Shown piece after piece: positions 3,366 to 52,673 of a stretch of DNA of 64,000 nucleotides. This DNA is from Pseudohongiellaceae bacterium (GTDB taxonomy: Bacteria; Pseudomonadota; Gammaproteobacteria; Pseudomonadales; Pseudohongiellaceae): positions 62,879-126,878 of the forward strand of contig CBFICB010000004.1 in NCBI GenBank assembly GCA_965661005.1, in the 5' to 3' direction. Each line of letters opens with the position of its first letter. Within the stretch, counting starts at the first letter, position 1. A model generated the notes under the pieces. The model ran no database searches and was not told the origin of the DNA. It worked only from the letters and a program-made list of their open reading frames with translations. The position numbers and the translations under genes were made by a program.

Positions 3366-3527
3366 TATTTGTGGCGATGGCTATTTCGTTCTCATGCGTT
3401 GTTGCTTATGTGCTCGGTCAGTCACGTATTCCTAATGCGTTCTTTCGCCGCATCCATAAGCGCTTAGCCTGAGAGATAAATATCCAAGCGCTACGTTTTA
3501 AATTAAGGTTATGTGGCATAAGAAGAA

Positions 3528-4693
<1,166 letters not shown>

Positions 4694-4720
4694 CTAATTT
4701 TCTAACTTAAAGGCAATATT

Positions 4721-5062
4721 ATGGATTTTTTTATCAGCTCAGCATATGCACAAACCGCAGACGGAGCCGCTCAACAAAGCCCCTGGACCAGTTTTATTTT
4801 CCTGGGAGGCTTTATACTTATTTTTTACTTTATGTTGATTCGGCCACAATCAAAACGAGCAAAAGAACATAAAGCACTAATTCAGGGTATTGGCAAAGGC
4901 GACGAAGTGATTACAGCCGGAGGAATTCTGGGTAAAGTTACTAAAGTTGATGAACAATATGTGTCGGTATCAGTGACAGAGAATGTTGAGTTAAAGATGC
5001 AAAAGTCATCAGTGTCTGCTGTATTACCCAAAGGCACTATAAAATCTATTGAACAAGCTTAA
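4721..5062 (+). CDS. yajC: preprotein translocase subunit YajC
   Basis: 113 aa with a single TM helix followed by IRPQSKRAKEHKAL. It sits in the conserved tgt-yajC-secD-secF order. Confidence 0.9.
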   Translation: MDFFISSAYAQTADGAAQQSPWTSFIFLGGFILIFYFMLIRPQSKRAKEHKALIQGIGKGDEVITAGGILGKVTKVDEQYVSVSVTENVELKMQKSSVSAVLPKGTIKSIEQA

Positions 5063-5106: not shown

Positions 5107-6987
5107 ATGCTAAATAAATATCCTCTTTGGAAAAACCTCTTGATAGTGTTTGTTATTGCATTGTCAGTTGTCTATGCTGCGCCGAATTTTTATCCGCCGG
5201 ATCCTGCCATCCAGATTTCTCATGATAGCGGCCTGGTTGATCAAAGTGTTATAGATACAGCATCTGCAGCATTGATTTCTGATGGCATTAACTTCCTGTC
5301 AGCAGAATTGGAAGATGGTTCAGGTTTGATTCGCTTGCAGGATCAGAATGATCAACGACGTGCGCAGGAAATCGTACAACTGTCCTTGCCAGATGAATAT
5401 CTGATTGCTCAAAACATGGCACCAAATACACCAGGTTTTTTACAGTCATTTGGGGCTGGCCCAATGGCTTATGGTCTTGATTTAAGTGGTGGTGTTCACT
5501 TCCTGATGGAAGTTGATATGGAGCAAGCTATCAGCAATCAGTTAAGCGATTCTATAGCTGTAATGCGTCGTTTATTGCGTGAAGAGCGTTTACGTTATCG
5601 TCCTCCCATAGAAGTAGATGACACTAACCGTATTGTGATCCGCTTTAATGATGCAGAAACCAGGACTGCCGCCAATAATTTAATCAGGGAAGAATTTCCT
5701 GACTTGATAAGCCGCAACAGTGAAATTGCTAATGAGTTTATTTTGTATTATCAGCCAACTGAAGCCAGCATCTTGTTATTGCAGGATTATGCTTTGCAAC
5801 AAAACCTTTCAACACTGCGAACTCGTGTTGATGCTTTAGGTGTCAGGGAGCCTAAGGTGCAGCGCATGGGGCAAGACCGTATTGTTGTAGAGCTACCTGG
5901 AATACAGGATACAGCTCGTGCCAAGGATATTATTTCTACAGTGGCGACCTTACGCTTTCATCTGGTTGCAGAAAGCAATGCTGCTCCAGGTACTACGACT
6001 GATTATGATTATGAAGGTCTGCCTCTTACGCTGGAAAATGATTTGATCGTTGGTGGTGATAGCGTCACCCAGGCCCAGGCAACATTTGATGCTCAGACGT
6101 CATTGCCTCAAGTTAACATTACACTTGATGCTGCAGGAGCCAGGCAGATGAATGAGGCTACTCGTGGCAACATAGGTCGAAACATGGCTATTCTGCTTAG
6201 CGAGACCAAAGTACGAACCGTGACGGAATTACTGCCCAGTGGTGAAATTGTTTCCAGCTCTGAACCCTATGAAGAAATTAGAGTGATAAGTGCTCCGACT
6301 ATTCAGGCTGCTTTGGGTAGGCAATTCAGGATTACCGGCTTAATGGGCAATGAAGCAAATGATTTGGCTTTATTAATTCGTTCAGGCGCATTAGCAGCCC
6401 CTATGTATTTTCTTGAAGAAAGCACCATAGGGCCGAGCCTTGGGCAGGAAAATATCGATCGAGGGGTTTTATCGGTACAAATTGGTTTTACCCTCGTGCT
6501 TGTTTTTATGATGGCTTACTACCGTTTATTTGGTTTAGTGGCCAACGTGGCGCTGGCCATCAATCTATTTTTATTAATTGCGGTGATGTCTATTATCGGT
6601 GCGACATTAACCTTGCCAGGAATTGCAGGGATAGTATTGACAGTGGGCATGGCCGTGGATGCTAATGTACTGATCTTTGCTCGTATCAGGGAAGAGCTTA
6701 AAAATGGTTTAAGTGTGCAAAAGGCAATTGATTCGGGTTATGGCAGGGCTTTTGTCACTATTCTTGATGCAAACGTTACGACACTGCTGGTCGCCATAAT
6801 TTTATATTCTATTGGAACCGGACCCGTTAAAGGTTTTGCAGTGACTCTCTCCATTGGAATTTTAACTTCAATGTTTACCGCAATAGTTGTAACACGTTCC
6901 ATCATTAACCTTATTTATGGTGGGCGCAAAGTTAACAAACTTTCTATAGGCATAAAAATGCCTGAGCCGAACGCAGGGAAGGCTTAA
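5107..6987 (+). CDS. secD: protein translocase subunit SecD
   Basis: 626 aa with an N-terminal TM helix, a large periplasmic domain and C-terminal RND-like TM bundle motifs (GIAGIVLTVGMAVDANVLIFARIREE). Confidence 0.95.
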   Translation: MLNKYPLWKNLLIVFVIALSVVYAAPNFYPPDPAIQISHDSGLVDQSVIDTASAALISDGINFLSAELEDGSGLIRLQDQNDQRRAQEIVQLSLPDEYLIAQNMAPNTPGFLQSFGAGPMAYGLDLSGGVHFLMEVDMEQAISNQLSDSIAVMRRLLREERLRYRPPIEVDDTNRIVIRFNDAETRTAANNLIREEFPDLISRNSEIANEFILYYQPTEASILLLQDYALQQNLSTLRTRVDALGVREPKVQRMGQDRIVVELPGIQDTARAKDIISTVATLRFHLVAESNAAPGTTTDYDYEGLPLTLENDLIVGGDSVTQAQATFDAQTSLPQVNITLDAAGARQMNEATRGNIGRNMAILLSETKVRTVTELLPSGEIVSSSEPYEEIRVISAPTIQAALGRQFRITGLMGNEANDLALLIRSGALAAPMYFLEESTIGPSLGQENIDRGVLSVQIGFTLVLVFMMAYYRLFGLVANVALAINLFLLIAVMSIIGATLTLPGIAGIVLTVGMAVDANVLIFARIREELKNGLSVQKAIDSGYGRAFVTILDANVTTLLVAIILYSIGTGPVKGFAVTLSIGILTSMFTAIVVTRSIINLIYGGRKVNKLSIGIKMPEPNAGKA

Positions 6988-7005
6988 ATCAGGTATTAAT
7001 TAAAC

Positions 7006-7953
7006 ATGATAGATTTTAATAACACGATCGATTTTATGGGCAAGCGCAAGTTTGCCACCATAATATCAGCGATCCTCATTATTCTTTCCATAGGCTCATT
7101 CTTTGTTAATGGCATGCGCTTTGGTTTGGATTTTACTGGTGGTACTCAGGCTGAACTCTTGTTTGAGGAATCACCCGATCTAGAAGGTATCAGAAGTACC
7201 CTAGAGCGGAATGGGTTTCAAAATTATGAAGTGGTTTTCTTTGGTAGCGATTTGGATGTCGTCATTAGAATACAAGATGTTCAGGAAGAAGGCTTGCCAC
7301 TGGAAGAGTCTAATCAGACCGGTGATCGCGTATTGGCAATGCTGGAAGAAGCATCAGGGCAAAATATTGAGTTACTGCGTTCAGAATTCATAGGTGCTCA
7401 GGTTGGAGATGAGTTAAGAGAACAGGGCGGCTTGGGTATGTTGGTCGCATTGATCATGATTATGATTTACATCTCTTTACGCTTTCAGTTTAAATTTGCA
7501 ATTGGAGCAGTAGTCGCTCTGGCACATGATGTGATTATTGTGCTGGGCTTTTTCTCTTTTATGCAATTTGATTTTGATCTGACAGTATTAGCTGCAGTAC
7601 TTGCAGTAGTGGGTTATTCGCTGAATGATACTATTGTTGTGTCAGATCGTATTCGTGAAAACTTTCGTTTGCTTAGAGGAGTTGATGCAAATGAGACTAT
7701 CAACACTTCAATTACTCAAACCTTTAGTCGAACGATTATTACGTCATTAACTACATTGTTAGTGCTTCTGGCGTTATTGTTGGTTGGTGGTGAAATGATT
7801 AGTGGCTTTGCTATTGCTTTAACAGTAGGTGTTTTGATTGGTACTTATTCATCAATTTATGTTGCGGCAAATGTATTACTTTATATGCATATCAGTAAGG
7901 AAGATTTAATTCCTGCCCAAAAAGACGATTCAGAACTGGATGCTCTTCCTTAA
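7006..7953 (+). CDS. secF: protein translocase subunit SecF
   Basis: 315 aa. LDFTGGT motif and a TM bundle with YSLNDTIVVSDRIREN, immediately downstream of secD. Confidence 0.95.
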   Translation: MIDFNNTIDFMGKRKFATIISAILIILSIGSFFVNGMRFGLDFTGGTQAELLFEESPDLEGIRSTLERNGFQNYEVVFFGSDLDVVIRIQDVQEEGLPLEESNQTGDRVLAMLEEASGQNIELLRSEFIGAQVGDELREQGGLGMLVALIMIMIYISLRFQFKFAIGAVVALAHDVIIVLGFFSFMQFDFDLTVLAAVLAVVGYSLNDTIVVSDRIRENFRLLRGVDANETINTSITQTFSRTIITSLTTLLVLLALLLVGGEMISGFAIALTVGVLIGTYSSIYVAANVLLYMHISKEDLIPAQKDDSELDALP

Positions 7954-44869: not shown

Positions 44870-45709
44870 CTAGTGGGTCAAAGAGTAAACTGCATAATTC
44901 ACACCCATTTGTATTCCTAGCGCTGCATCCCGTTGAGGGTAACGTGGATTATCCTGATGCTGCCAGGAATCTCCCATATCATTATTAAATGATATGGCGA
45001 CCATTACACGACCATTATCATCCAAAACAGCTTTCCATTGAGGGTCGTGACCATCTGCACGGTAGGGTACACCGCGACCAGAAAGTGAACGCATATTAGC
45101 AATTTGTTGACGGTCACTTAAATCATAAATAATATCAAAAACAGGGTGCTCATCCGCCAAGTCAATTACAGCCCTGCCTGGAAAAACTCGCCGAAGGCTT
45201 GTTATAAATCCTGACCATTCGCTGGTGCCAAAAAAACTATCGGCTAATAAAAAGCCTCCCCTGAGTAAATATTCTCGGAGTTTGGCAGCCTGGCTGTCAG
45301 TTAAATCCCAGCTTCCGGGCATGCCTACAATCAGAAACGGCCAGTTGAAAATATCATCGCCATCATCCAGATTAACTGGCTGTTCGACAGAACGCACATC
45401 AACAGTCGTTAGACGTCTTAATAAGCGGGCATAGGTTCTATCACCAAGTGGATAGTCGACTGCCCAGTTAGTTCCTCCCATCTGCCAGTTGCCTCCACCA
45501 CCAAACATGCCTCCATAGGAAGGATACATCAAGCGACCGACCACAAATTCTCCAGGCACCATGTAATCATCCGGTAAAGCAGCATAGGCATCACCCTCCA
45601 GGCTTTGTAATACTCGGAATTCGCGTTGTGCAAAGATAAAAGAGCTGGACAGACTAAGCACTAAAGCCAGAAAGAGGGAGGATTTGTTATTGCTAAGCCA
45701 TGAAGACAT
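44870..45709 (-). CDS. secreted DUF4159 domain-containing protein
   Basis: Signal peptide (...SFIFA-QREF). NWAVDYPLGDRTYARLLRRLT and NWPFLIVGMPGSWDLTDSQAAKLREYLLRGGFLLADSFFG match my memory of DUF4159 proteins. Confidence 0.75.
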   Translation of the reverse strand: MSSWLSNNKSSLFLALVLSLSSSFIFAQREFRVLQSLEGDAYAALPDDYMVPGEFVVGRLMYPSYGGMFGGGGNWQMGGTNWAVDYPLGDRTYARLLRRLTTVDVRSVEQPVNLDDGDDIFNWPFLIVGMPGSWDLTDSQAAKLREYLLRGGFLLADSFFGTSEWSGFITSLRRVFPGRAVIDLADEHPVFDIIYDLSDRQQIANMRSLSGRGVPYRADGHDPQWKAVLDDNGRVMVAISFNNDMGDSWQHQDNPRYPQRDAALGIQMGVNYAVYSLTH

Positions 45710-45907: not shown

Positions 45908-46705
45908 ATGCATGGTAAGGAAATTGAATCTACTGCGACAGCTACTGCCAGTGCCTTACATCGTTTTAACCGTTACGAAATAAAGTATTTCCTGCCTGAG
46001 AATCAAATAGCCGAATTCAAGGAAAATGTGCAACAGCGCATGGATACTGACGCCCATGCAAAAGAGAGTTCGAAACGCATTACCAGTCTTTATTACGATA
46101 CTGAAGATTTAAGGTTCTACTGGGAAAAGATTGAAGGATTAAGGTTTCGACGCAAGTTACGCATTCGTGCATATGGTGAACCTGATAGTATTAAGGACGA
46201 CAGCATGGTCTTTGTTGAAATTAAACAGCGAGTCAATCGAGTAACGCAAAAACGTAGAGTCCCATTGCCGTATGCCATGGCAAAAATTTTATGTGATGAA
46301 AAAATTGATCCGGAATACCCGGGAGTTCGGCAAGCCTTTGTTGATGAAGTGCTCGCACTCGGTGAAATAGCTGACTTACGACCCATGGTAATTACGACCT
46401 ATCACCGTGAAGCCTATGTGGGCGTGGATGCGGATCTTGGTCTGAGAATTACTATGGATCACCGTGTACAGGGGCGAGAAAAAGATTTTAATTTAGGTGT
46501 AAGATCAGAAAATAAATTTATTATTCCCTCATATTTATCTATAGTCGAAGTCAAAGCCAATGAACGGATACCCACATGGTTTACAGATCTGGCTGCAAAA
46601 ATGAGTTTGGATGTTATTCGTGTATCAAAATATTGCAAAGCAATTGAAGCAAATTTGGTAGGGGTGAGAGCTAACTTGCACGCAAGGAACTTGCCTGGAT
46701 CATAA
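45908..46705 (+). CDS. VTC-domain (polyphosphate polymerase-like, triphosphate tunnel metalloenzyme fold) protein, soluble
   Basis: 265 aa with no TM helix. RFNRYEIKYF N-terminal motif plus RFRRKLRIRAY, VFVEIKQR, IVEVKANE and RVSKY, the alternating basic/acidic strands expected for a TTM/VTC tunnel. Confidence 0.8.
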   Translation: MHGKEIESTATATASALHRFNRYEIKYFLPENQIAEFKENVQQRMDTDAHAKESSKRITSLYYDTEDLRFYWEKIEGLRFRRKLRIRAYGEPDSIKDDSMVFVEIKQRVNRVTQKRRVPLPYAMAKILCDEKIDPEYPGVRQAFVDEVLALGEIADLRPMVITTYHREAYVGVDADLGLRITMDHRVQGREKDFNLGVRSENKFIIPSYLSIVEVKANERIPTWFTDLAAKMSLDVIRVSKYCKAIEANLVGVRANLHARNLPGS

Positions 46706-46744
46706 GAATTATATGAAATTAATTAGCGCTGGGAGTGAGAGTAA

Positions 46745-47422
46745 ATGAATTTTGATGTTGTTGATTTGTCAGGTACCTTCAATACTCTGGATATTATTTT
46801 AGCGCTTTCTTTATCCTTTGTTTTATCTACAATTGTAGGATTGGTTTACAGAGCAACTCACAGAAATATTTCATATAGCCAGTCTTATGTGCAAACCTTG
46901 GTTGTAGTTTGCATGGTGCTTTCCGTACTTATGTTGATTGTCGGGTCTAATATTGCCCGAGCCTTCGCTTTGGTGGGCGCTTTCTCAGTCGTGCGATTCA
47001 GGAATGCCTTAAAAGAGACGCGTGATGTAGGCTTCATCTTTTTGGTTATGGCCATCGGTATGGCTACTGGAACTCAGTTTTATGTATTGGCCATTGCAGC
47101 AACAGTTGCGATTTCAGTCGTCATACTATTGATGACAAAGTTAAATGCATTCGCCAGTAATATTCATCGCCAGGTAGTTAAAGTTCAAATTCCACCGCAA
47201 GGTGATTTTGATAAATTGGTCGAAGATGTCCTAATAAAACTGACAAAAAGTTTTGAGTTAGTGAGTACCGAAACAATTCGAAATGGCGCTTTGATGGAAT
47301 TATTCTATACAGTAGAGCTCAATCGTAAAGTTGAACCCAGAGATTTAGTCAATCAGATCACTGAAGTAAATACGGGGCAACGCGTTACGATACTAAGTGG
47401 TTATGATCAAACGGATCTCTGA
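46745..47422 (+). CDS. DUF4956-like integral membrane protein (4 TM helices + C-terminal soluble domain)
   Basis: 225 aa. Hydrophobic N-terminal two thirds with ARAFALVGAFSVVRFRNALKETRDVGFIF. It follows the VTC gene after 39 nt. I remember this family as the usual partner of bacterial VTC-domain genes. Confidence 0.7.
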   Translation: MNFDVVDLSGTFNTLDIILALSLSFVLSTIVGLVYRATHRNISYSQSYVQTLVVVCMVLSVLMLIVGSNIARAFALVGAFSVVRFRNALKETRDVGFIFLVMAIGMATGTQFYVLAIAATVAISVVILLMTKLNAFASNIHRQVVKVQIPPQGDFDKLVEDVLIKLTKSFELVSTETIRNGALMELFYTVELNRKVEPRDLVNQITEVNTGQRVTILSGYDQTDL

Positions 47423-47517
47423 TGGCTCAAGGCCTATGATTGTGAAGCTCTGTGTTTTAGCAAGCTAGTCTGGGTGTTGCCGGTAAGCTATTACACTTCA
47501 AGTCAAAAAAAATTCTA

Positions 47518-47526
47518 TGCTAAGAT
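47518..47526 (+). promoter_or_regulatory. candidate extended -10 element (TGCTAAGAT) upstream of the CotH-family gene
   Basis: Read directly in the 161-nt spacer. The weak -35 candidate TTCAAG/TCAAGT lies at about 17-bp spacing. Confidence 0.25.
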
Positions 47527-47583
47527 AGAAGCAGGGTTTATGAACAATATACTTTTATCACTTAAGCACTATGACTCTCGATT

Positions 47584-48921
47584 ATGAATCGAAAAAGTGA
47601 TCCTGTCTCTTATGACCGCTCCTGGTGGCAACGGACAATTCCTGTGCGTATCAGGCACAACAGTCGTTTAATTTTTAGTTCCATTTTTATATTAGTGATC
47701 ACTGGCCTGATACTAGGGTCTTTTCGTATTGATCCGATTGTTTTCACTCAAGAAAGCCAAGAACAAAGCTACAAATCCCGTTTCAATGTTATTGGGGCTG
47801 TTGATTTATTTGATTTAAATGTGCCTCATGAAATAGAGATGGTGATTAGTCCTGGTGATTATCAAATCATGATGAATGATTACCAGCGCCTGGGTTTAAA
47901 AACCTGGGTGCCAGCAAACATTACAATTGATGGAACTTTGATTGAAAATATTGGAATAAGATTGAAAGGAAATTCTACCTTAAGACAACTGAGTAGAAGC
48001 GCTCGAGGTTGGGGAAGACCAGGTCGAATGAGTAATGCGACATTTGATAATCCTTCTACTTTGCCTTTTGCCGTAAGTTTTGATGAATACGAAGACGATG
48101 TTACCTATCAGGGGAGGGAAGAGTTAGCCATCAGACCAGCAAAAACTGGCGGTACAAATATTAATGAAGCGCTTGCCTTGCAACTGATAGAAGATTCCGA
48201 GCAAATATCTCAGGATTATACTTGGGTCAATTTTAGTGTTAATGGTTACCCGAGTGTAACACGCCTGGTTATAGAAAATCCTGATAAACGTTATGCTGCG
48301 GCTTTGGGCTTGGGTAGTGGGGTGCTTTATAAATCCACTAGCACTAACCGCTTTCGGTATCTTGGAGACGCCCCTTTGAATTACGAGTCAGATTTTGATC
48401 AGATTAATGCTAAAGGAACCCATGATCTAACACCGATTATTAATTTGCTAAAGTGGTTGTCAGAAGCTGATGCCGATACCTTTGAAAACGAATTAGCGCA
48501 ATGGGTAGATATAGATAGCTTTGCCCGTTATGTGGCTACTCAGGATATTTTACAAAACTTTGATGATATGTCTGGTCCAGGGCATAACTTTCTTCTTTGG
48601 TATGATCTGATTGATGGAAGATTTACTGTTATTAGTTGGGATATGAATCTGGCCCTAGGGGCTGGAGACTTTATAGGCGGTTTTGATGGTTTTGGTTACG
48701 GTGGTGGAAATGCTCTGAAAGAACGGTTTATGCGTAGCAATTTTAGAAATGAAATTGCTCAGGCTCGCGAAGAGCTACTTGGTTTATGGGTTAATAATAA
48801 CTATGCGCTCAGAACTATGGATAGACTGGCAGATGTAATCCCGCTATCTGATACCTTGACTGAAGAGCAATTTTTGAGAGATATCGCTTTAACTCGCAGA
48901 ACCGTGCAATTTCTTCGGTAA
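47584..48921 (+). CDS. CotH-family atypical protein kinase, N-terminally membrane-anchored
   Basis: 445 aa. A basic N-terminus is followed by one TM helix (LIFSSIFILVITGLILGSF). IRLKGNST and HNFLLWYD....F.VISWDMNLALG resemble the CotH signature (RGNS..., NYYLY...WD.D..FG). Confidence 0.8.
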   Translation: MNRKSDPVSYDRSWWQRTIPVRIRHNSRLIFSSIFILVITGLILGSFRIDPIVFTQESQEQSYKSRFNVIGAVDLFDLNVPHEIEMVISPGDYQIMMNDYQRLGLKTWVPANITIDGTLIENIGIRLKGNSTLRQLSRSARGWGRPGRMSNATFDNPSTLPFAVSFDEYEDDVTYQGREELAIRPAKTGGTNINEALALQLIEDSEQISQDYTWVNFSVNGYPSVTRLVIENPDKRYAAALGLGSGVLYKSTSTNRFRYLGDAPLNYESDFDQINAKGTHDLTPIINLLKWLSEADADTFENELAQWVDIDSFARYVATQDILQNFDDMSGPGHNFLLWYDLIDGRFTVISWDMNLALGAGDFIGGFDGFGYGGGNALKERFMRSNFRNEIAQAREELLGLWVNNNYALRTMDRLADVIPLSDTLTEEQFLRDIALTRRTVQFLR

Positions 48922-49750: not shown

Positions 49751-50815
49751 TTAAGCTAATACTGCAACACTTTTAATTTGAGCAAAAACTGCCTTTCCTC
49801 TTTTGATCTTTAAATTTTCTGCGGATTTCATCGTAATCCTTGCTAATACGGGTAGCTCTTTGATGATTAATCGCACAGTAAGCTGGGCCTTGCTTTCTTC
49901 ATAAAGCTCATCAATAACTGCTGGGAAAATGTTTAGGATGCTAGTGTTGCTTTGTTCTTCAAGCGTGAGGCTAATATCCTGAGCCAGCAAACGAAGTCTT
50001 AGTTTTTTTTGTGGTGCTAATTTTTTTCCGGGTACTGTAAAAGTGCCAACATCGGAAGATAAATAATTCAACTGAAATTTTTCATCATAATTATCTGCTG
50101 TTGCAAAAATTAATGATTCCGCCTGTCGCCGATGTGCCAATGATAAATCGGTTCGAGTGAGTAGTTCACTGATAGGGCCGAAAGCTTTTATAACAGTATC
50201 TTCTATAAATATAAGCTGGTCAGCTAATCTGCCTATTTCCTCATTGGAATGACTGACATAAAGAATAGGGATTTTCATCTCTTTATTGACGATTTCAATG
50301 TAAGGCAATAGTTCAGTCTTGCGGACTTGATCAAGGGAGGATAAGGGCTCATCCATTAATAATAGCTTTGGGTTAGCCGCTAAGGCTCTGGCAATTGCAA
50401 CGCGTTGGCGTTCCCCTCCTGAAAGAAAAGCGGGTTTTTTATTCAGTAAGTTTTGCAGCCCTAATAGATCGATGACTTGCCCAACAGAAATACTTCTGCG
50501 GTCAGCAGGAGCTCTTTTAAAACCATATTCAATATTTCCTTTAACGCTAAGATGTTCAAACAAGCTGGCTTCCTGGAAAACATAGCCAAGGGAACGCTGG
50601 TGTGGCGCCAGAAAGATATTTTCATCCTGCCAGATTTCATCGCCGACTTGCAGTGTCGAATTTGGATGCAATTCAAGCCCGGCGATGGCTCTTAGTAATG
50701 ATGTTTTCCCGCAACCTGATTCCCCGAATATTGCAGTGATACCTTCAGCTGAAATATTAAAATTGAAATTTAGCAATTCAGAACGTGCAATTTGAAACTG
50801 TGCTTTTAACCTCAT
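49751..50815 (-). CDS. modC: molybdate ABC transporter ATP-binding protein ModC
   Basis: Walker A GESGCGKTS, LSGGERQR, LLMDEP, and C-terminal TOBE-type domains. 354 aa. Confidence 0.88.
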   Translation of the reverse strand: MRLKAQFQIARSELLNFNFNISAEGITAIFGESGCGKTSLLRAIAGLELHPNSTLQVGDEIWQDENIFLAPHQRSLGYVFQEASLFEHLSVKGNIEYGFKRAPADRRSISVGQVIDLLGLQNLLNKKPAFLSGGERQRVAIARALAANPKLLLMDEPLSSLDQVRKTELLPYIEIVNKEMKIPILYVSHSNEEIGRLADQLIFIEDTVIKAFGPISELLTRTDLSLAHRRQAESLIFATADNYDEKFQLNYLSSDVGTFTVPGKKLAPQKKLRLRLLAQDISLTLEEQSNTSILNIFPAVIDELYEESKAQLTVRLIIKELPVLARITMKSAENLKIKRGKAVFAQIKSVAVLA

Positions 50816-51492
50816 AATCGGACAACCTTAAAGCGGCCATTGATGGCATAAACGGCTACAAGCATAAGGAAGGATAAGATGACAAGACTGCCAGCTAATA
50901 AATGGGCATTTGCGTATTCGAGAGCTTCGACATGCTCATAGATTGCAATCGAAAGCACCTTGGTTTCGCCAGGAATATTTCCACCAATCATCAATACAAC
51001 CCCAAACTCACCCAAAGTATGGGCAAAGCCAAGCACGATTGCAGTCAGCACACCTTGTCGAGCCAAAGGCAAGGCAACGCTTATAAAGCGATCAAAGGGC
51101 GAGGCACCAAGCGTGGCTGCAGCTTCCATGGGTCTTTGACCAATATTATTGAAAGCGTCTTGCAAAGGTTGTACAACAAAAGGCATGGAATAAAAAACAG
51201 AGCCAATTACCAGCCCAGTAAAGCTAAAGGCTAATGGTTCAGCACCGATGGATTCCATCAAGTACCCCAGCGGACCATTATTGCCAAGTAATAATAATAA
51301 ATAAAATCCTAATACGGTCGGGGGCAGTACCAGTGGCAGTGCAACAAGGGCTTCGAGGAAAAATTTATATCGCCAGCGACTTCGAGCGAGGTACCAGGCC
51401 AAAGGCGTACCTAAAATTAATAAAATTAAAGTGGTAATGAAAGCGAGTTGTAGTGTTAAAAAGAATGCTGTTAAATCTGCTGATATAAACAT
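50812..51492 (-). CDS. modB: molybdate ABC transporter permease ModB
   Basis: 226 aa, 5-6 TM helices. LVLPPTVLGFYLL and EAA-loop (EAAATLGASPF...) motifs. Overlaps modC by 4 nt. Confidence 0.85.
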   Translation of the reverse strand: MFISADLTAFFLTLQLAFITTLILLILGTPLAWYLARSRWRYKFFLEALVALPLVLPPTVLGFYLLLLLGNNGPLGYLMESIGAEPLAFSFTGLVIGSVFYSMPFVVQPLQDAFNNIGQRPMEAAATLGASPFDRFISVALPLARQGVLTAIVLGFAHTLGEFGVVLMIGGNIPGETKVLSIAIYEHVEALEYANAHLLAGSLVILSFLMLVAVYAINGRFKVVRL

Positions 51493-51671
51493 TAGCCTTG
51501 GCTTGCTTCAGATGCTTTCTAATAATGAGTAATTCAATGGTAAGTGTGCTTGAGGCACCGTGTCCAGTTATATGGCTTTTTGGCCAGTTAAATTTAGCGA
51601 CAGTTTTTTAATTCCTGTATTATTGCCCTTTGCTGTTAAAAATTAATCCAGCAAACCTAGAGCGTAAACGA

Positions 51672-52673
51672 ATGTCTGAATCTGCAACAACTTTGATTGA
51701 TAAACATGGGCGTCATATTGATTATGTACGACTGTCGCTGACAGATCGTTGTGATTTTCGTTGTGTTTATTGTATGTCTGAAGAAATGACCTTCTTGCCA
51801 CGTAAGCAAATATTAAGCCTTGAAGAAATATACAAAGTCGCATCAGCGTTTACTGAATTAGGGGTTAATAAAATTCGCTTAACGGGTGGAGAGCCATTAG
51901 TGCGAAGGAACGTCATGTCCTTAATCGAAAATATCGGACGCTTACCTGGTTTGGATGAGTTTCTACTCACAACGAATGGTTCGCAATTAGAAAAAATGGC
52001 AGGCCCTTTAAGAGACGCGGGTGTTAATCGCATTAATATCAGTCTTGATAGTCTAAATGCTGAAAAGTTTAAAGCTATGACGCGCACAGGTAAGCTGGAG
52101 CAAGTATTAAAAGGGATTGAAACTGCAGTGGCTACAGGTTTTGACAGCATTCGTCTGAATTCAGTAATTTTACGTGGAGTTAATGATCATGAAATTATTG
52201 ACCTGCTTGAATATGCCATAGGTTTAGGGATAAACATTGCGTATATAGAAGAAATGCCATTGGGCGATATCAGTGATCATGAAAGAGTGGATACGGTGTT
52301 TTCCAATGAGAATGTTAAGGAAAAAATTCTAGAACATTATGCTATAAGCCCAATAGATATGAACACAGCCGGCCCGTCTCGTTATTATGAAATTGAGGGG
52401 CAGCAAAGCCGAGTTGGTTTCATATCTCCGGTTAGTCACAATTTCTGCGAAAGCTGTAACCGAGTAAGGGTGACTGTCGAGGGGCGTTTATTATTGTGTT
52501 TGGGTAATGAGTACTCAACTGATCTTAGGCAATTACTCAGGGAGCAGCCTGACAATTCAGAATTGTTAAAGCAGACTATCGTTGAAGCTATGGACATCAA
52601 ACCGCTACGTCATTATTTTTATGACGAAGAGCAGCCGCAAATAGTTAGATTTATGAATATGACAGGGGGTTAG
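51672..52673 (+). CDS. moaA: GTP 3',8-cyclase MoaA (radical SAM)
   Basis: CDFRCVYC radical-SAM cluster motif, C-terminal CESCNRVR cluster and a terminal GG. The ATG at 51672 is preferred over the TTG at 51630. Confidence 0.92.
   Translation: MSESATTLIDKHGRHIDYVRLSLTDRCDFRCVYCMSEEMTFLPRKQILSLEEIYKVASAFTELGVNKIRLTGGEPLVRRNVMSLIENIGRLPGLDEFLLTTNGSQLEKMAGPLRDAGVNRINISLDSLNAEKFKAMTRTGKLEQVLKGIETAVATGFDSIRLNSVILRGVNDHEIIDLLEYAIGLGINIAYIEEMPLGDISDHERVDTVFSNENVKEKILEHYAISPIDMNTAGPSRYYEIEGQQSRVGFISPVSHNFCESCNRVRVTVEGRLLLCLGNEYSTDLRQLLREQPDNSELLKQTIVEAMDIKPLRHYFYDEEQPQIVRFMNMTGG

Follow-up and report, generated by a model that had tools for sequence, protein, structure and literature searches.

A conserved three-gene locus for a VTC-domain polymerase homologue, a DUF4956 membrane protein and a predicted extracytoplasmic CotH-family kinase homologue in a SAR86-like gammaproteobacterial genome

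What might a cytoplasmic relative of the eukaryotic polyphosphate (polyP) polymerase, a small membrane protein and a kinase homologue predicted to lie outside the cytoplasm accomplish together? The question is raised by three adjacent genes in a 64,000-nt stretch of contig CBFICB010000004.1 (positions 62,879 to 126,878; Pseudohongiellaceae bacterium, assembly GCA_965661005.1), which was analysed at its full length and is called the window below. The three open reading frames (ORFs) lie on the + strand, encode VTC-domain, DUF4956 and CotH-family proteins of 265, 225 and 445 aa, and are separated by 39 nt (VTC/DUF4956) and 161 nt (DUF4956/CotH; Table 1). The nearest named relatives, on whose 77% identity the SAR86-like assignment used here rests, are SAR86-cluster marine Gammaproteobacteria. 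A preliminary description made from the letters alone had assigned the genes to these families, quoted short motifs from them, taken the VTC protein to be soluble and the CotH domain to lie outside the cytoplasm, and named family profiles, tunnel residues, catalytic Asp/Asn residues and three-way co-occurrence as points to check. The coordinates and both gaps were confirmed, every quoted motif was found at the expected residues, all three proteins scored above the Pfam gathering score of their families, and the other points held as well, apart from one correction in the membrane protein.

Three proteins and their conserved residues

Analysis of the first protein revealed a match to Pfam VTC (PF09359; E = 7.6e-47, 160.3 bits vs cutoff 23) in which residues 21-247 covered profile positions 1-232 of 235. 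A profile search matched the Vtc4 structures 3G3Q, 5IIQ and 8I6V at E = 1.7e-7, and the single sequence matched Vtc4 at E = 2.6e-3 with low identity. The protein contained zero hydrophobic segments and no signal peptide, and neither an SPX domain nor a transmembrane (TM) domain was detected in it by Pfam or a hydrophobicity scan. Its homologues in Actinomycetota and Myxococcota are 53-80% identical. The motif RYEIKY was located at residues 22-27 (45971-45988), and RIR, EIK, EVK and SK were also present. In Vtc4, residues K200, R264, R266, K281, R361, K458, S457, Y359 and E426 coordinate triphosphate and Mn2+, and their mutants lower cellular polyP; K458 is the sole listed residue that differs in the inactive Vtc2/Vtc3 (bioRxiv 10.1101/2023.01.27.525886). 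All nine of these polyP-synthesis residues were matched in the window protein (K26, R85, R87, K106, Y165, R167, E214, S240 and K241), and all nine were unchanged throughout 16 aligned homologues, drawn from Gammaproteobacteria, Myxococcota and Actinomycetota. The equivalents of E426, S457 and K458 were mapped in a second aligned stretch that is non-significant alone and in which the EVK and SKY/SKF motifs align exactly. A tunnel fold has been reported for a Streptococcus VTC homologue (bioRxiv 10.1101/2024.04.20.589940). Judged by these alignments, the window protein is an intact Vtc4-type catalytic domain, and presumably an active enzyme.

The third protein matched Pfam CotH (PF08757; E = 3.7e-25, 89.5 bits vs cutoff 23.8). 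Its AlphaFold2 (AF2) model (pLDDT 84.5, pTM 0.79) consists of an N-terminal helix (27-46), a disordered linker (48-65) and a globular domain (67-444), and the top Foldseek match was the B. cereus CotH kinase (5JD9/5JDA; E = 8.3e-16, TM-score 0.61/0.74), with HipA/HipT, PI4K and Fam20 kinases among the distant matches. The motifs RLKGNSTL (residues 126-133), NFDDMSGPGHN (325-335) and WDMN (352-355) were located, and D327, N335 and D353, whose correspondence to Bacillus residues was taken from 5JD9 alignments, were invariant in 40 homologues and in both types of the tandem paralogues described below. The B. subtilis CotH variants D228Q and D251A are catalytically dead (PMC7821199). The window protein shares with Bacillus CotH the fold, the Pfam family, the equivalents of D228 and D251 and the Asn of the HN motif, but it is only 18% identical, has ~100 extra N-terminal residues and carries invariant R184, R227 and K250 where Bacillus has N, Y and Y; K106, R126 and K128 are further triad-specific basic residues that do not vary.

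The two proteins also differ in their predicted location. Whereas Bacillus CotH has no TM anchor and acts on the coat proteins CotB and CotG in the ATP-containing cytoplasm of the mother cell, the window protein appears anchored with its domain outside. An N-terminal TM segment was found in 39/40 homologues of several phyla, with 2-10 Lys+Arg (usually 4-8) on its N-side and 0-3 in the next 15 residues; by the positive-inside rule, this basic N-side marks a signal anchor and places the kinase domain outside the cytoplasm. This predicted position and the non-sporulating host argue against a spore-coat role. The tail motif RSWWxRxxPVRxRH was conserved between phyla, with P20 and R24 invariant or nearly so. 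Such conservation is unexpected for a plain anchor and suggests that the tail interacts with a partner in the cytoplasm or membrane.

The second protein, and all of its homologues analysed (37/37), matched Pfam DUF4956 (PF16316; for the window protein E = 3.5e-22, 79.4 bits vs cutoff 30.6). The MgtC profile (PF02308) matched the window protein under its cutoff (E = 2.6e-4, 21.8 bits vs 31.4) and 30/37 homologues at E < 0.01 (best E = 1.1e-6), and this weak, recurrent similarity indicates that DUF4956 is related to MgtC without being a member of that family. The provisional model resembles MgtC/YhiD/SapB in a hydrophobic multi-helix N-terminal domain and, after it, a small ACT-like domain predicted to be cytoplasmic; unlike MgtC, the protein carries the signature GSNIARAF...VRFRN..KETRD and has DUF4956 as its best family, whereas MgtC shows no linkage to VTC or CotH genes and is known from regulatory roles.

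The AF2 model of the DUF4956 protein contains five predicted helices (14-38, 43-66, 69-83, 89-107 and 112-132), so that the count of four TM helices in the preliminary description was probably one short; because confidence in the membrane part is low (pLDDT about 45-63; mean pLDDT 62), helix count and topology are provisional. The mean number of Lys+Arg per loop along the chain was 0 / 2.1 / 0 / 4.0 / 0.9 / 3.5 in the 37 homologues, which fits a topology with the N-terminus outside, five TM helices and the C-terminus inside, and would place the ACT-like domain in the cytoplasm. This domain was modelled as beta-alpha-beta-beta-alpha-beta at pLDDT about 75-83. Foldseek matched it to just generic ferredoxin-like and ACT folds (best E = 4e-3), and a PDB sequence search with the DUF4956 protein returned nothing but spurious designed-repeat matches.

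An exhaustive profile search recovered DUF4956 in 6,411 representative clusters (50% identity) at E <= 1e-3. Comparison of 95 full-length representatives, 27-50% identical to the window protein, revealed a family core formed by helix 3 and the subsequent loop (residues about 66-110), in which R84, R86 and D94 were invariant and R72, K90, E91 and R93 were at least 85% conserved; the sequence of the ACT-like domain varied across the same set. A basic cluster of R72, R84, R86, K90 and R93 at the predicted inner face is what would be expected of a site receiving a phosphate polymer, and it would suit other anionic ligands too. Closer to the window, the protein shares 65-94% identity with 36 homologues of three phyla, with a length of exactly 225 aa in 35/36, and identity between SAR86-like Gammaproteobacteria, Nannocystis and Actinomycetota is 65-75%. 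Identity at this level is normal only for core translation proteins, and for DUF4956 it implies that the protein is under extreme constraint or that the operon has spread horizontally from phylum to phylum.

Table 1 Features of the locus, in window coordinates.
Feature	Position	Strand	Basis or remark
VTC-domain polyphosphate polymerase homologue, stand-alone, soluble, Vtc4-type	45908..46705	+	265 aa; Pfam VTC
VTC Lys26, equivalent of Vtc4 K200, inside RYEIKY	45983..45985	+	Vtc4 alignment; invariant
VTC Arg85 and Arg87, equivalents of Vtc4 R264 and R266	46160..46168	+	Vtc4 alignment; invariant
VTC Glu104-Ile-Lys106; K106 equivalent of Vtc4 K281	46217..46225	+	Vtc4 alignment; invariant
VTC Tyr165 and Arg167, equivalents of Vtc4 Y359 and R361	46400..46408	+	profile alignment; invariant
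VTC Glu214 (E426 equivalent, Mn2+ ligand) and Lys216 (K428 equivalent)	46547..46555	+	second aligned stretch
VTC Ser240-Lys241, equivalents of Vtc4 S457 and K458	46625..46630	+	second aligned stretch
DUF4956 / MgtC-like membrane protein	46745..47422	+	225 aa; Pfam, AF2 model, loop charges
DUF4956 conserved core G67-G96 (GSNIARAFALVGAFSVVRFRNALKETRDVG): helix 3 and basic loop, predicted cytoplasmic face	46943..47032	+	family conservation
DUF4956 C-terminal ferredoxin-like / ACT-like domain, residues 142-217	47168..47395	+	AF2; predicted cytoplasmic
Spacer	47423..47583		161 nt; without a second CotH paralogue in the window
CotH-family kinase homologue, membrane-anchored, predicted extracytoplasmic	47584..48921	+	445 aa; Pfam, AF2, Foldseek
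CotH basic cytoplasmic tail (residues 1-26, RSWWxRxxPVRxRH) and signal-anchor TM helix (27-46)	47584..47721	+	AF2, charges
CotH catalytic loop NFDDMSGPGHN	48556..48588	+	D327 = B. subtilis D228; N335 aligns with B. cereus HN Asn
CotH WDMN motif	48637..48648	+	D353 = B. subtilis D251, metal-binding DFG-like Asp

Linkage of the three genes across genomes

A scan of one genome per species revealed a close VTC relative in at least 529 species. Linkage was analysed in the 80 best loci (10 from gammaproteobacterial metagenome-assembled genomes (MAGs) and 70 from Actinomycetota) together with five further loci, by scanning six-frame ORFs with hidden Markov models. The order VTC-DUF4956-CotH on one strand was found in 83/83 untruncated loci of Gammaproteobacteria, Actinomycetota and Nannocystis, including the neighbourhoods of a SAR86 contig, Nannocystis pusilla and Nocardia amikacinitolerans, and the two further loci end, as contigs, ahead of the CotH position. 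Since the 80 loci are the closest relatives, shared ancestry explains part of this co-occurrence. However, all-against-all clustering of flank ORFs from 82 loci revealed no conserved fourth gene (commonest family, 19/82), and scrambled flanks around an intact trio argue that the trio is retained as a unit. The gap between VTC and DUF4956 had a median of 6 nt and was <=30 nt in 70/84 cases, and the DUF4956 stop overlapped the CotH start in 49/83; tight or overlapping junctions of this kind are typical of co-translated subunits.

Two candidates for a fourth member were rejected. A response regulator of generic OmpR type was present in 19/82 loci only and a histidine kinase in 16/82 only; both fell under every NCBIfam equivalog cutoff, and hence lack a specific link to phosphate. 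PHO4 was found near the trio in 4/85 loci searched: in Nannocystis pusilla (L003), a PhoU_div and PHO4 transporter pair lies directly upstream on the same strand (6187-7843) and two additional CotH-family ORFs lie nearby on the opposite strand (3385-5062), and PHO4 homologues stand beside the trio in three Promicromonospora loci (L041, L057 and L061). In Nocardia amikacinitolerans, a pair of MspA-type mycomembrane porin genes (L004, 6249-7953) directly precedes the trio; among the 85 loci, MspA porins were beside the trio in one Nocardia species only.

Variation in the CotH gene was observed in SAR86-like genomes, where 4/10 genome-scan loci (L007, L009, L010 and the L001/L002 contig) carried a tandem CotH pair after DUF4956. 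The first paralogue (L001 9557-11122; L007 11496-13040) is longer, at ~515-540 aa, has inserts rich in Pro, Gly and Met and is similar to the CotH type of Actinobacteria and Nannocystis. The window carries only the second, a short type of 445 aa. The catalytic motifs and the tail with its TM segment were kept in both.

No VTC-DUF4956 or DUF4956-CotH fusion was found in the 150 best DUF4956 representatives, among which full-length DUF4956 measured 222-238 aa. Longer DUF4956 proteins, considered as fusions, proved to be truncated chimeras (P0363), an unrelated MMPL fusion (P0382) or extensions without a Pfam match. A VTC-DUF4956 fusion ORF of 526 codons on a 2.1-kb MAG contig (L008) was rejected as an artefact of 10 masked N bases (1292-1301), a run that shifts the frame and so joins the reading frames, mimicking a gene fusion.

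The trio was also present in Firmicutes, at about 28% identity. In six divergent representatives examined, VTC stood directly upstream of DUF4956 in 4/5 with upstream sequence, and in the fifth (L092) a 267-aa gene without family assignment occupied the VTC position. Two of the six had a large CotH gene in the operon as well, with the genes ordered differently, and a 4.4-kb contig (L088) carried VTC-DUF4956 without CotH. With VTC upstream of DUF4956 in divergent lineages and CotH variable, the VTC-DUF4956 pair looks obligate and CotH a very frequent third member.

Some divergent relatives lay in glycan-related contexts. On a Planococcus maritimus plasmid (L086, 5389-12824), VTC, DUF4956 and CotH are followed by genes for a ~690-aa hypothetical protein, a HEAT-repeat protein and a glycosyltransferase, a six-gene layout shared with the C. 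perfringens necrotic-enteritis locus NELoc-2 (CP4_0463-0468). Pseudobutyrivibrio pNP95 carries CotH-VTC-DUF4956 within an exopolysaccharide (EPS)-type cluster of GT2, GT4, acyl- and pyruvyl-transferase genes. In the divergent locus L091 (2285-5269), the operon CotH has 994 aa with NosD / Beta_helix repeats, which may extend the kinase for carbohydrate binding or surface display. In another divergent lineage (JGI 3300072015 contig), the operon comprises, in this order, a protein with a weak Porin_O_P match, a 921-aa CotH, a 99-aa ORF, VTC and DUF4956. Porin_O_P is a phosphate/polyphosphate-selective outer-membrane porin, and a genuine match would give a phosphate polymer a way through the outer membrane.

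A possible phosphoanhydride supply to the envelope, and its alternatives

Three earlier reports, of 2010, 2019 and 2024, describe the trio beside Gram-positive pel/EPS loci, none with a functional test. A 2010 table of C. perfringens NELoc-2 contains the same three genes (CP4_0463-0465), with the DUF4956 gene annotated 'tubulin/FtsZ, GTPase' (PMC2879425). Genes for cotH, polyphosphate polymerase, DUF4956 and DUF4832 form an accessory set adjoining pel operons in streptococci, clostridia and bifidobacteria (Whitfield et al., bioRxiv 10.1101/768473). S. intermedius SIR_1592-1594 encode a secreted CotH and a cytoplasmic VTC-like polymerase, with catalytic residues in both, and a 4-TM + ACT MgtC-like protein, and the combination was stated not to be findable outside pel operons (bioRxiv 10.1101/2024.04.20.589940). 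A 2025 review classes VTC as the eukaryote-type and PPK as the prokaryote-type polyP polymerase (PMC12526157). The preliminary description had presented the combination as uncharacterised; this stood insofar as no demonstrated function was found in the literature searched, and failed insofar as the trio was already on record from Gram-positive pel operons and NELoc-2. The observation of the genes is confirmed, the interpretation partly supported and the claim of novelty overstated. What is new here is that the trio stands alone, independent of pel, in a Gram-negative bacterium and in an actinobacterial/proteobacterial subfamily of very large size; to this we add the residue-level and topology evidence and the idea that DUF4956 replaces a VTC1-type pore.

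Comparison with the pel accessory trio revealed the same three families, contiguous and on one strand, with a CotH predicted to be secreted or at the surface, a cytoplasmic VTC protein and an MgtC-like protein with an ACT domain. In contrast, the window set lies beside neither pel/pelDEA(DA)FG nor a glycan locus, has no DUF4832 hydrolase, is ordered VTC-DUF4956-CotH rather than CotH-VTC-DUF4956, and has a CotH without an FN3 domain; its host is Gram-negative and SAR86-like, and its subfamily is 53-94% identical across Gammaproteobacteria, Myxococcota and Actinomycetota. With the eukaryotic VTC complex (Vtc4/Vtc3 or Vtc2/Vtc1), the trio shares the Pfam VTC family, the nine catalytic residues and the pairing of a cytosolic enzyme with a membrane component. 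Yeast VTC couples synthesis to passage through its own TM pore into a compartment that topologically equals the outside (bioRxiv 10.1101/2023.01.27.525886), and a product of the trio delivered outward would reach an equivalent one. Unlike the VTC complex, the window trio has no SPX domain, no fused VTC1-type three-helix TM domain and no Vtc1-like subunits; its membrane partner is a separate protein of an unrelated family, MgtC-like with five predicted helices and an ACT-like domain; its extracytoplasmic kinase has no VTC counterpart; and translocation, known for VTC, is conjectural for the trio. PPK1/PPK2 would have the presumed product in common, polyP from ATP, but are of unrelated fold and family and come without a dedicated membrane partner or surface kinase.

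The reading that we favour, with less than even confidence, is that the trio forms one operon-encoded envelope module for the synthesis, handover and use of a phosphoanhydride product. The cytoplasmic Vtc4-type tunnel enzyme would make polyP or a short phosphoanhydride chain from ATP, working at the cytoplasmic face of the five-helix DUF4956 protein, which would stand in for the VTC1-type TM pore. The invariant basic loop and the ACT-like domain of DUF4956 would face the cytoplasm, and the loop would receive the product. The product would cross the inner membrane, or be presented at it, to CotH, anchored there with its catalytic domain in the periplasm, and CotH would draw on it, either as a substrate or as the source of phosphoryl groups, in modifying a protein or glycan of the envelope. 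The assembly of a complex, the passage through DUF4956, the nature of the product and its use by CotH are conjectural; the export-and-phosphodonor mechanism, inferred in its entirety, is plausible and consistent with the predicted topology. A more specific version, a polyP synthase-exporter in which the polymerase binds to a pore-forming, MgtC-like partner and polyP reaches CotH as phosphoryl donor, is possible, if doubtful. The strongest argument for the mechanism, a logical rather than a direct one, is that an apparently intact kinase in an ATP-free compartment seems translationally coupled across phyla to a presumed ATP-consuming phosphoanhydride maker and a membrane protein. A membrane potential that is negative inside would help a polyanion to leave the cytoplasm, as does the equivalent gradient in yeast vacuoles.

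Several points weigh against this reading. We know of no CotH enzyme that uses polyP, and Bacillus CotH uses ATP. The operon of the trio encodes no target for a periplasmic product. The homology of DUF4956 is to MgtC, whose relatives are regulators rather than channels, and the helix count and topology assigned to DUF4956 are the provisional ones given above. The absence of fusions among the 150 representatives and the divergent contig with the pair but no CotH belong on the same side, as does the outcome of our literature search, in which no functional study of a bacterial VTC-domain protein, of DUF4956 or of a non-spore CotH linked to polyP was found. MgtC is presented in a 2024 preprint as a regulatory membrane protein acting on F1Fo ATP synthase and PhoR, not as a channel, and the same authors infer for S. 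intermedius that polyP 'may remain in the cytoplasm' (bioRxiv 10.1101/2024.04.20.589940).

In one alternative, which is less likely, polyP would stay inside as a cytoplasmic phosphate buffer, DUF4956 would be an MgtC-like regulator or anchor, and CotH would be a co-regulated surface kinase independent of polyP. The ACT-like domain would then sense a metabolite, or DUF4956 would act on ATP synthase or a Pho sensor. This would agree with the regulatory, non-transport roles of MgtC, with the cytoplasmic polyP favoured by the authors of the S. intermedius preprint (bioRxiv 10.1101/2024.04.20.589940), with the PHO4/PhoU transporter directly upstream in Nannocystis and PHO4 in four loci, and with the finding of neither a fusion nor structural evidence for a pore. 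A phosphate buffer leaves unexplained, however, why an extracytoplasmic kinase with no obvious ATP is kept in the operon in at least four phyla and two gene orders, and also the frequent codon overlap at the DUF4956/CotH junction (49/83) and the conserved cytoplasmic tail of CotH.

Rather improbable, in our estimate, is an exopolysaccharide or surface-glycan module, in which CotH would be a glycan or matrix-protein kinase, polyP a donor or matrix component, and the surface polymer of SAR86 encoded at an unlinked site. The Firmicutes contexts speak for it: the trio lies downstream of pel operons, beside a HEAT-repeat protein and a glycosyltransferase on the Planococcus plasmid and in C. perfringens NELoc-2, and inside the glycosyl-, acyl- and pyruvyl-transferase cluster of Pseudobutyrivibrio pNP95, and one divergent CotH has a beta-helix (NosD-like) domain of carbohydrate type. 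Neither the window nor the 82 loci, however, contained a conserved glycosyltransferase or pel neighbour, and a glycan module would differ from the favoured reading in its target only, since the supply mechanism is shared.

A different activity of the VTC protein, as a tri-/polyphosphatase or as the maker of a different nucleotide or phosphoanhydride product that the module would handle, is improbable. Triphosphate-tunnel enzymes are functionally diverse (PMC4641920, PMC9582702), the literature contained no assay of any bacterial VTC-domain protein that we could find, and identity to Vtc4 is low in the single-sequence match (E = 2.6e-3). However, the Pfam match is specific to the VTC family, and the invariance of all nine polymerase-critical residues, including the equivalent of K458 that marks the active subunit, points to a polymerase. 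Chance adjacency or inherited synteny without functional coupling is effectively refuted, for although shared ancestry contributes among the 80 closest relatives, the trio was intact in 83/83 loci amid scrambled flanks, start and stop codons frequently overlap, and the trio recurs in Gammaproteobacteria, Myxococcota, Actinomycetota and Bacillota, on plasmids, and in another order in Bacillota and unclassified divergent lineages.

Surroundings of the locus and implications

Upstream of the trio, the window contains ccmFGHI, an MFS_3 transporter and a divergent gene for a secreted DUF4159 protein, and downstream it contains ferredoxin-NADP reductase (fpr), modCB, moaA and moaB; elsewhere in the window, the large ORFs have housekeeping roles (SecD, Ffh, pyruvate kinase, hom/thrC and RecJ). 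The GC content at the trio (0.39-0.40) is slightly under the window average and inside the window range of 0.36-0.46, and thus nothing in it points to a recent island. The DUF4159 gene (44870-45709, - strand) is divergent from the VTC gene and lies 198 nt upstream of it, and its product is secreted, with a signal-peptide-like hydrophobic N-terminal segment at ~residues 9-28. As a candidate member of the module it was rejected: it was conserved only in SAR86-like loci (L001, L002 and L006-L013) and absent in L015, Nannocystis and all Actinomycetota, so that it probably reflects local synteny outside the module.

No NCBIfam model matched the VTC, DUF4956 or CotH protein of the window. An Rfam scan of the whole 64-kb window returned zero families at gathering score, and no molybdenum-cofactor riboswitch appeared near modCB / moaA (49751-52673) in that scan. 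Promoter-like sites did not exceed their frequency in shuffled sequence, and a scan found no convincing terminator between the genes of the trio.

VTC is still treated as a eukaryote-type polymerase, yet the membrane partner described here comprises 6,411 clusters and close relatives of the polymerase occur in the genomes of at least 529 species. The ocean is typically short of phosphorus, and the retention of the trio amid housekeeping genes in an apparent SAR86-type marine genome suggests a role worth its cost. In Firmicutes, the trio accompanies loci for pathogenicity and for the biofilm matrix (Pel and other EPS); knowing its activity would hence matter for virulence and biofilm chemistry, and also for phosphorus cycling in the sea. 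If the synthase-exporter version is true, no dedicated line supplying phosphoanhydride energy to the ATP-free envelope of bacteria would precede the trio, its CotH would be the first polyP-dependent protein or glycan kinase of kinase fold, and the module would explain in molecular terms how the polyP long observed on and outside bacterial cells gets there. Three small genes make both the exit of polyP from bacterial cells and the function of a kinase without ATP accessible to experiment, and the trio is a testable candidate for the supply of phosphate-bond energy to the ATP-free cell envelope of bacteria.

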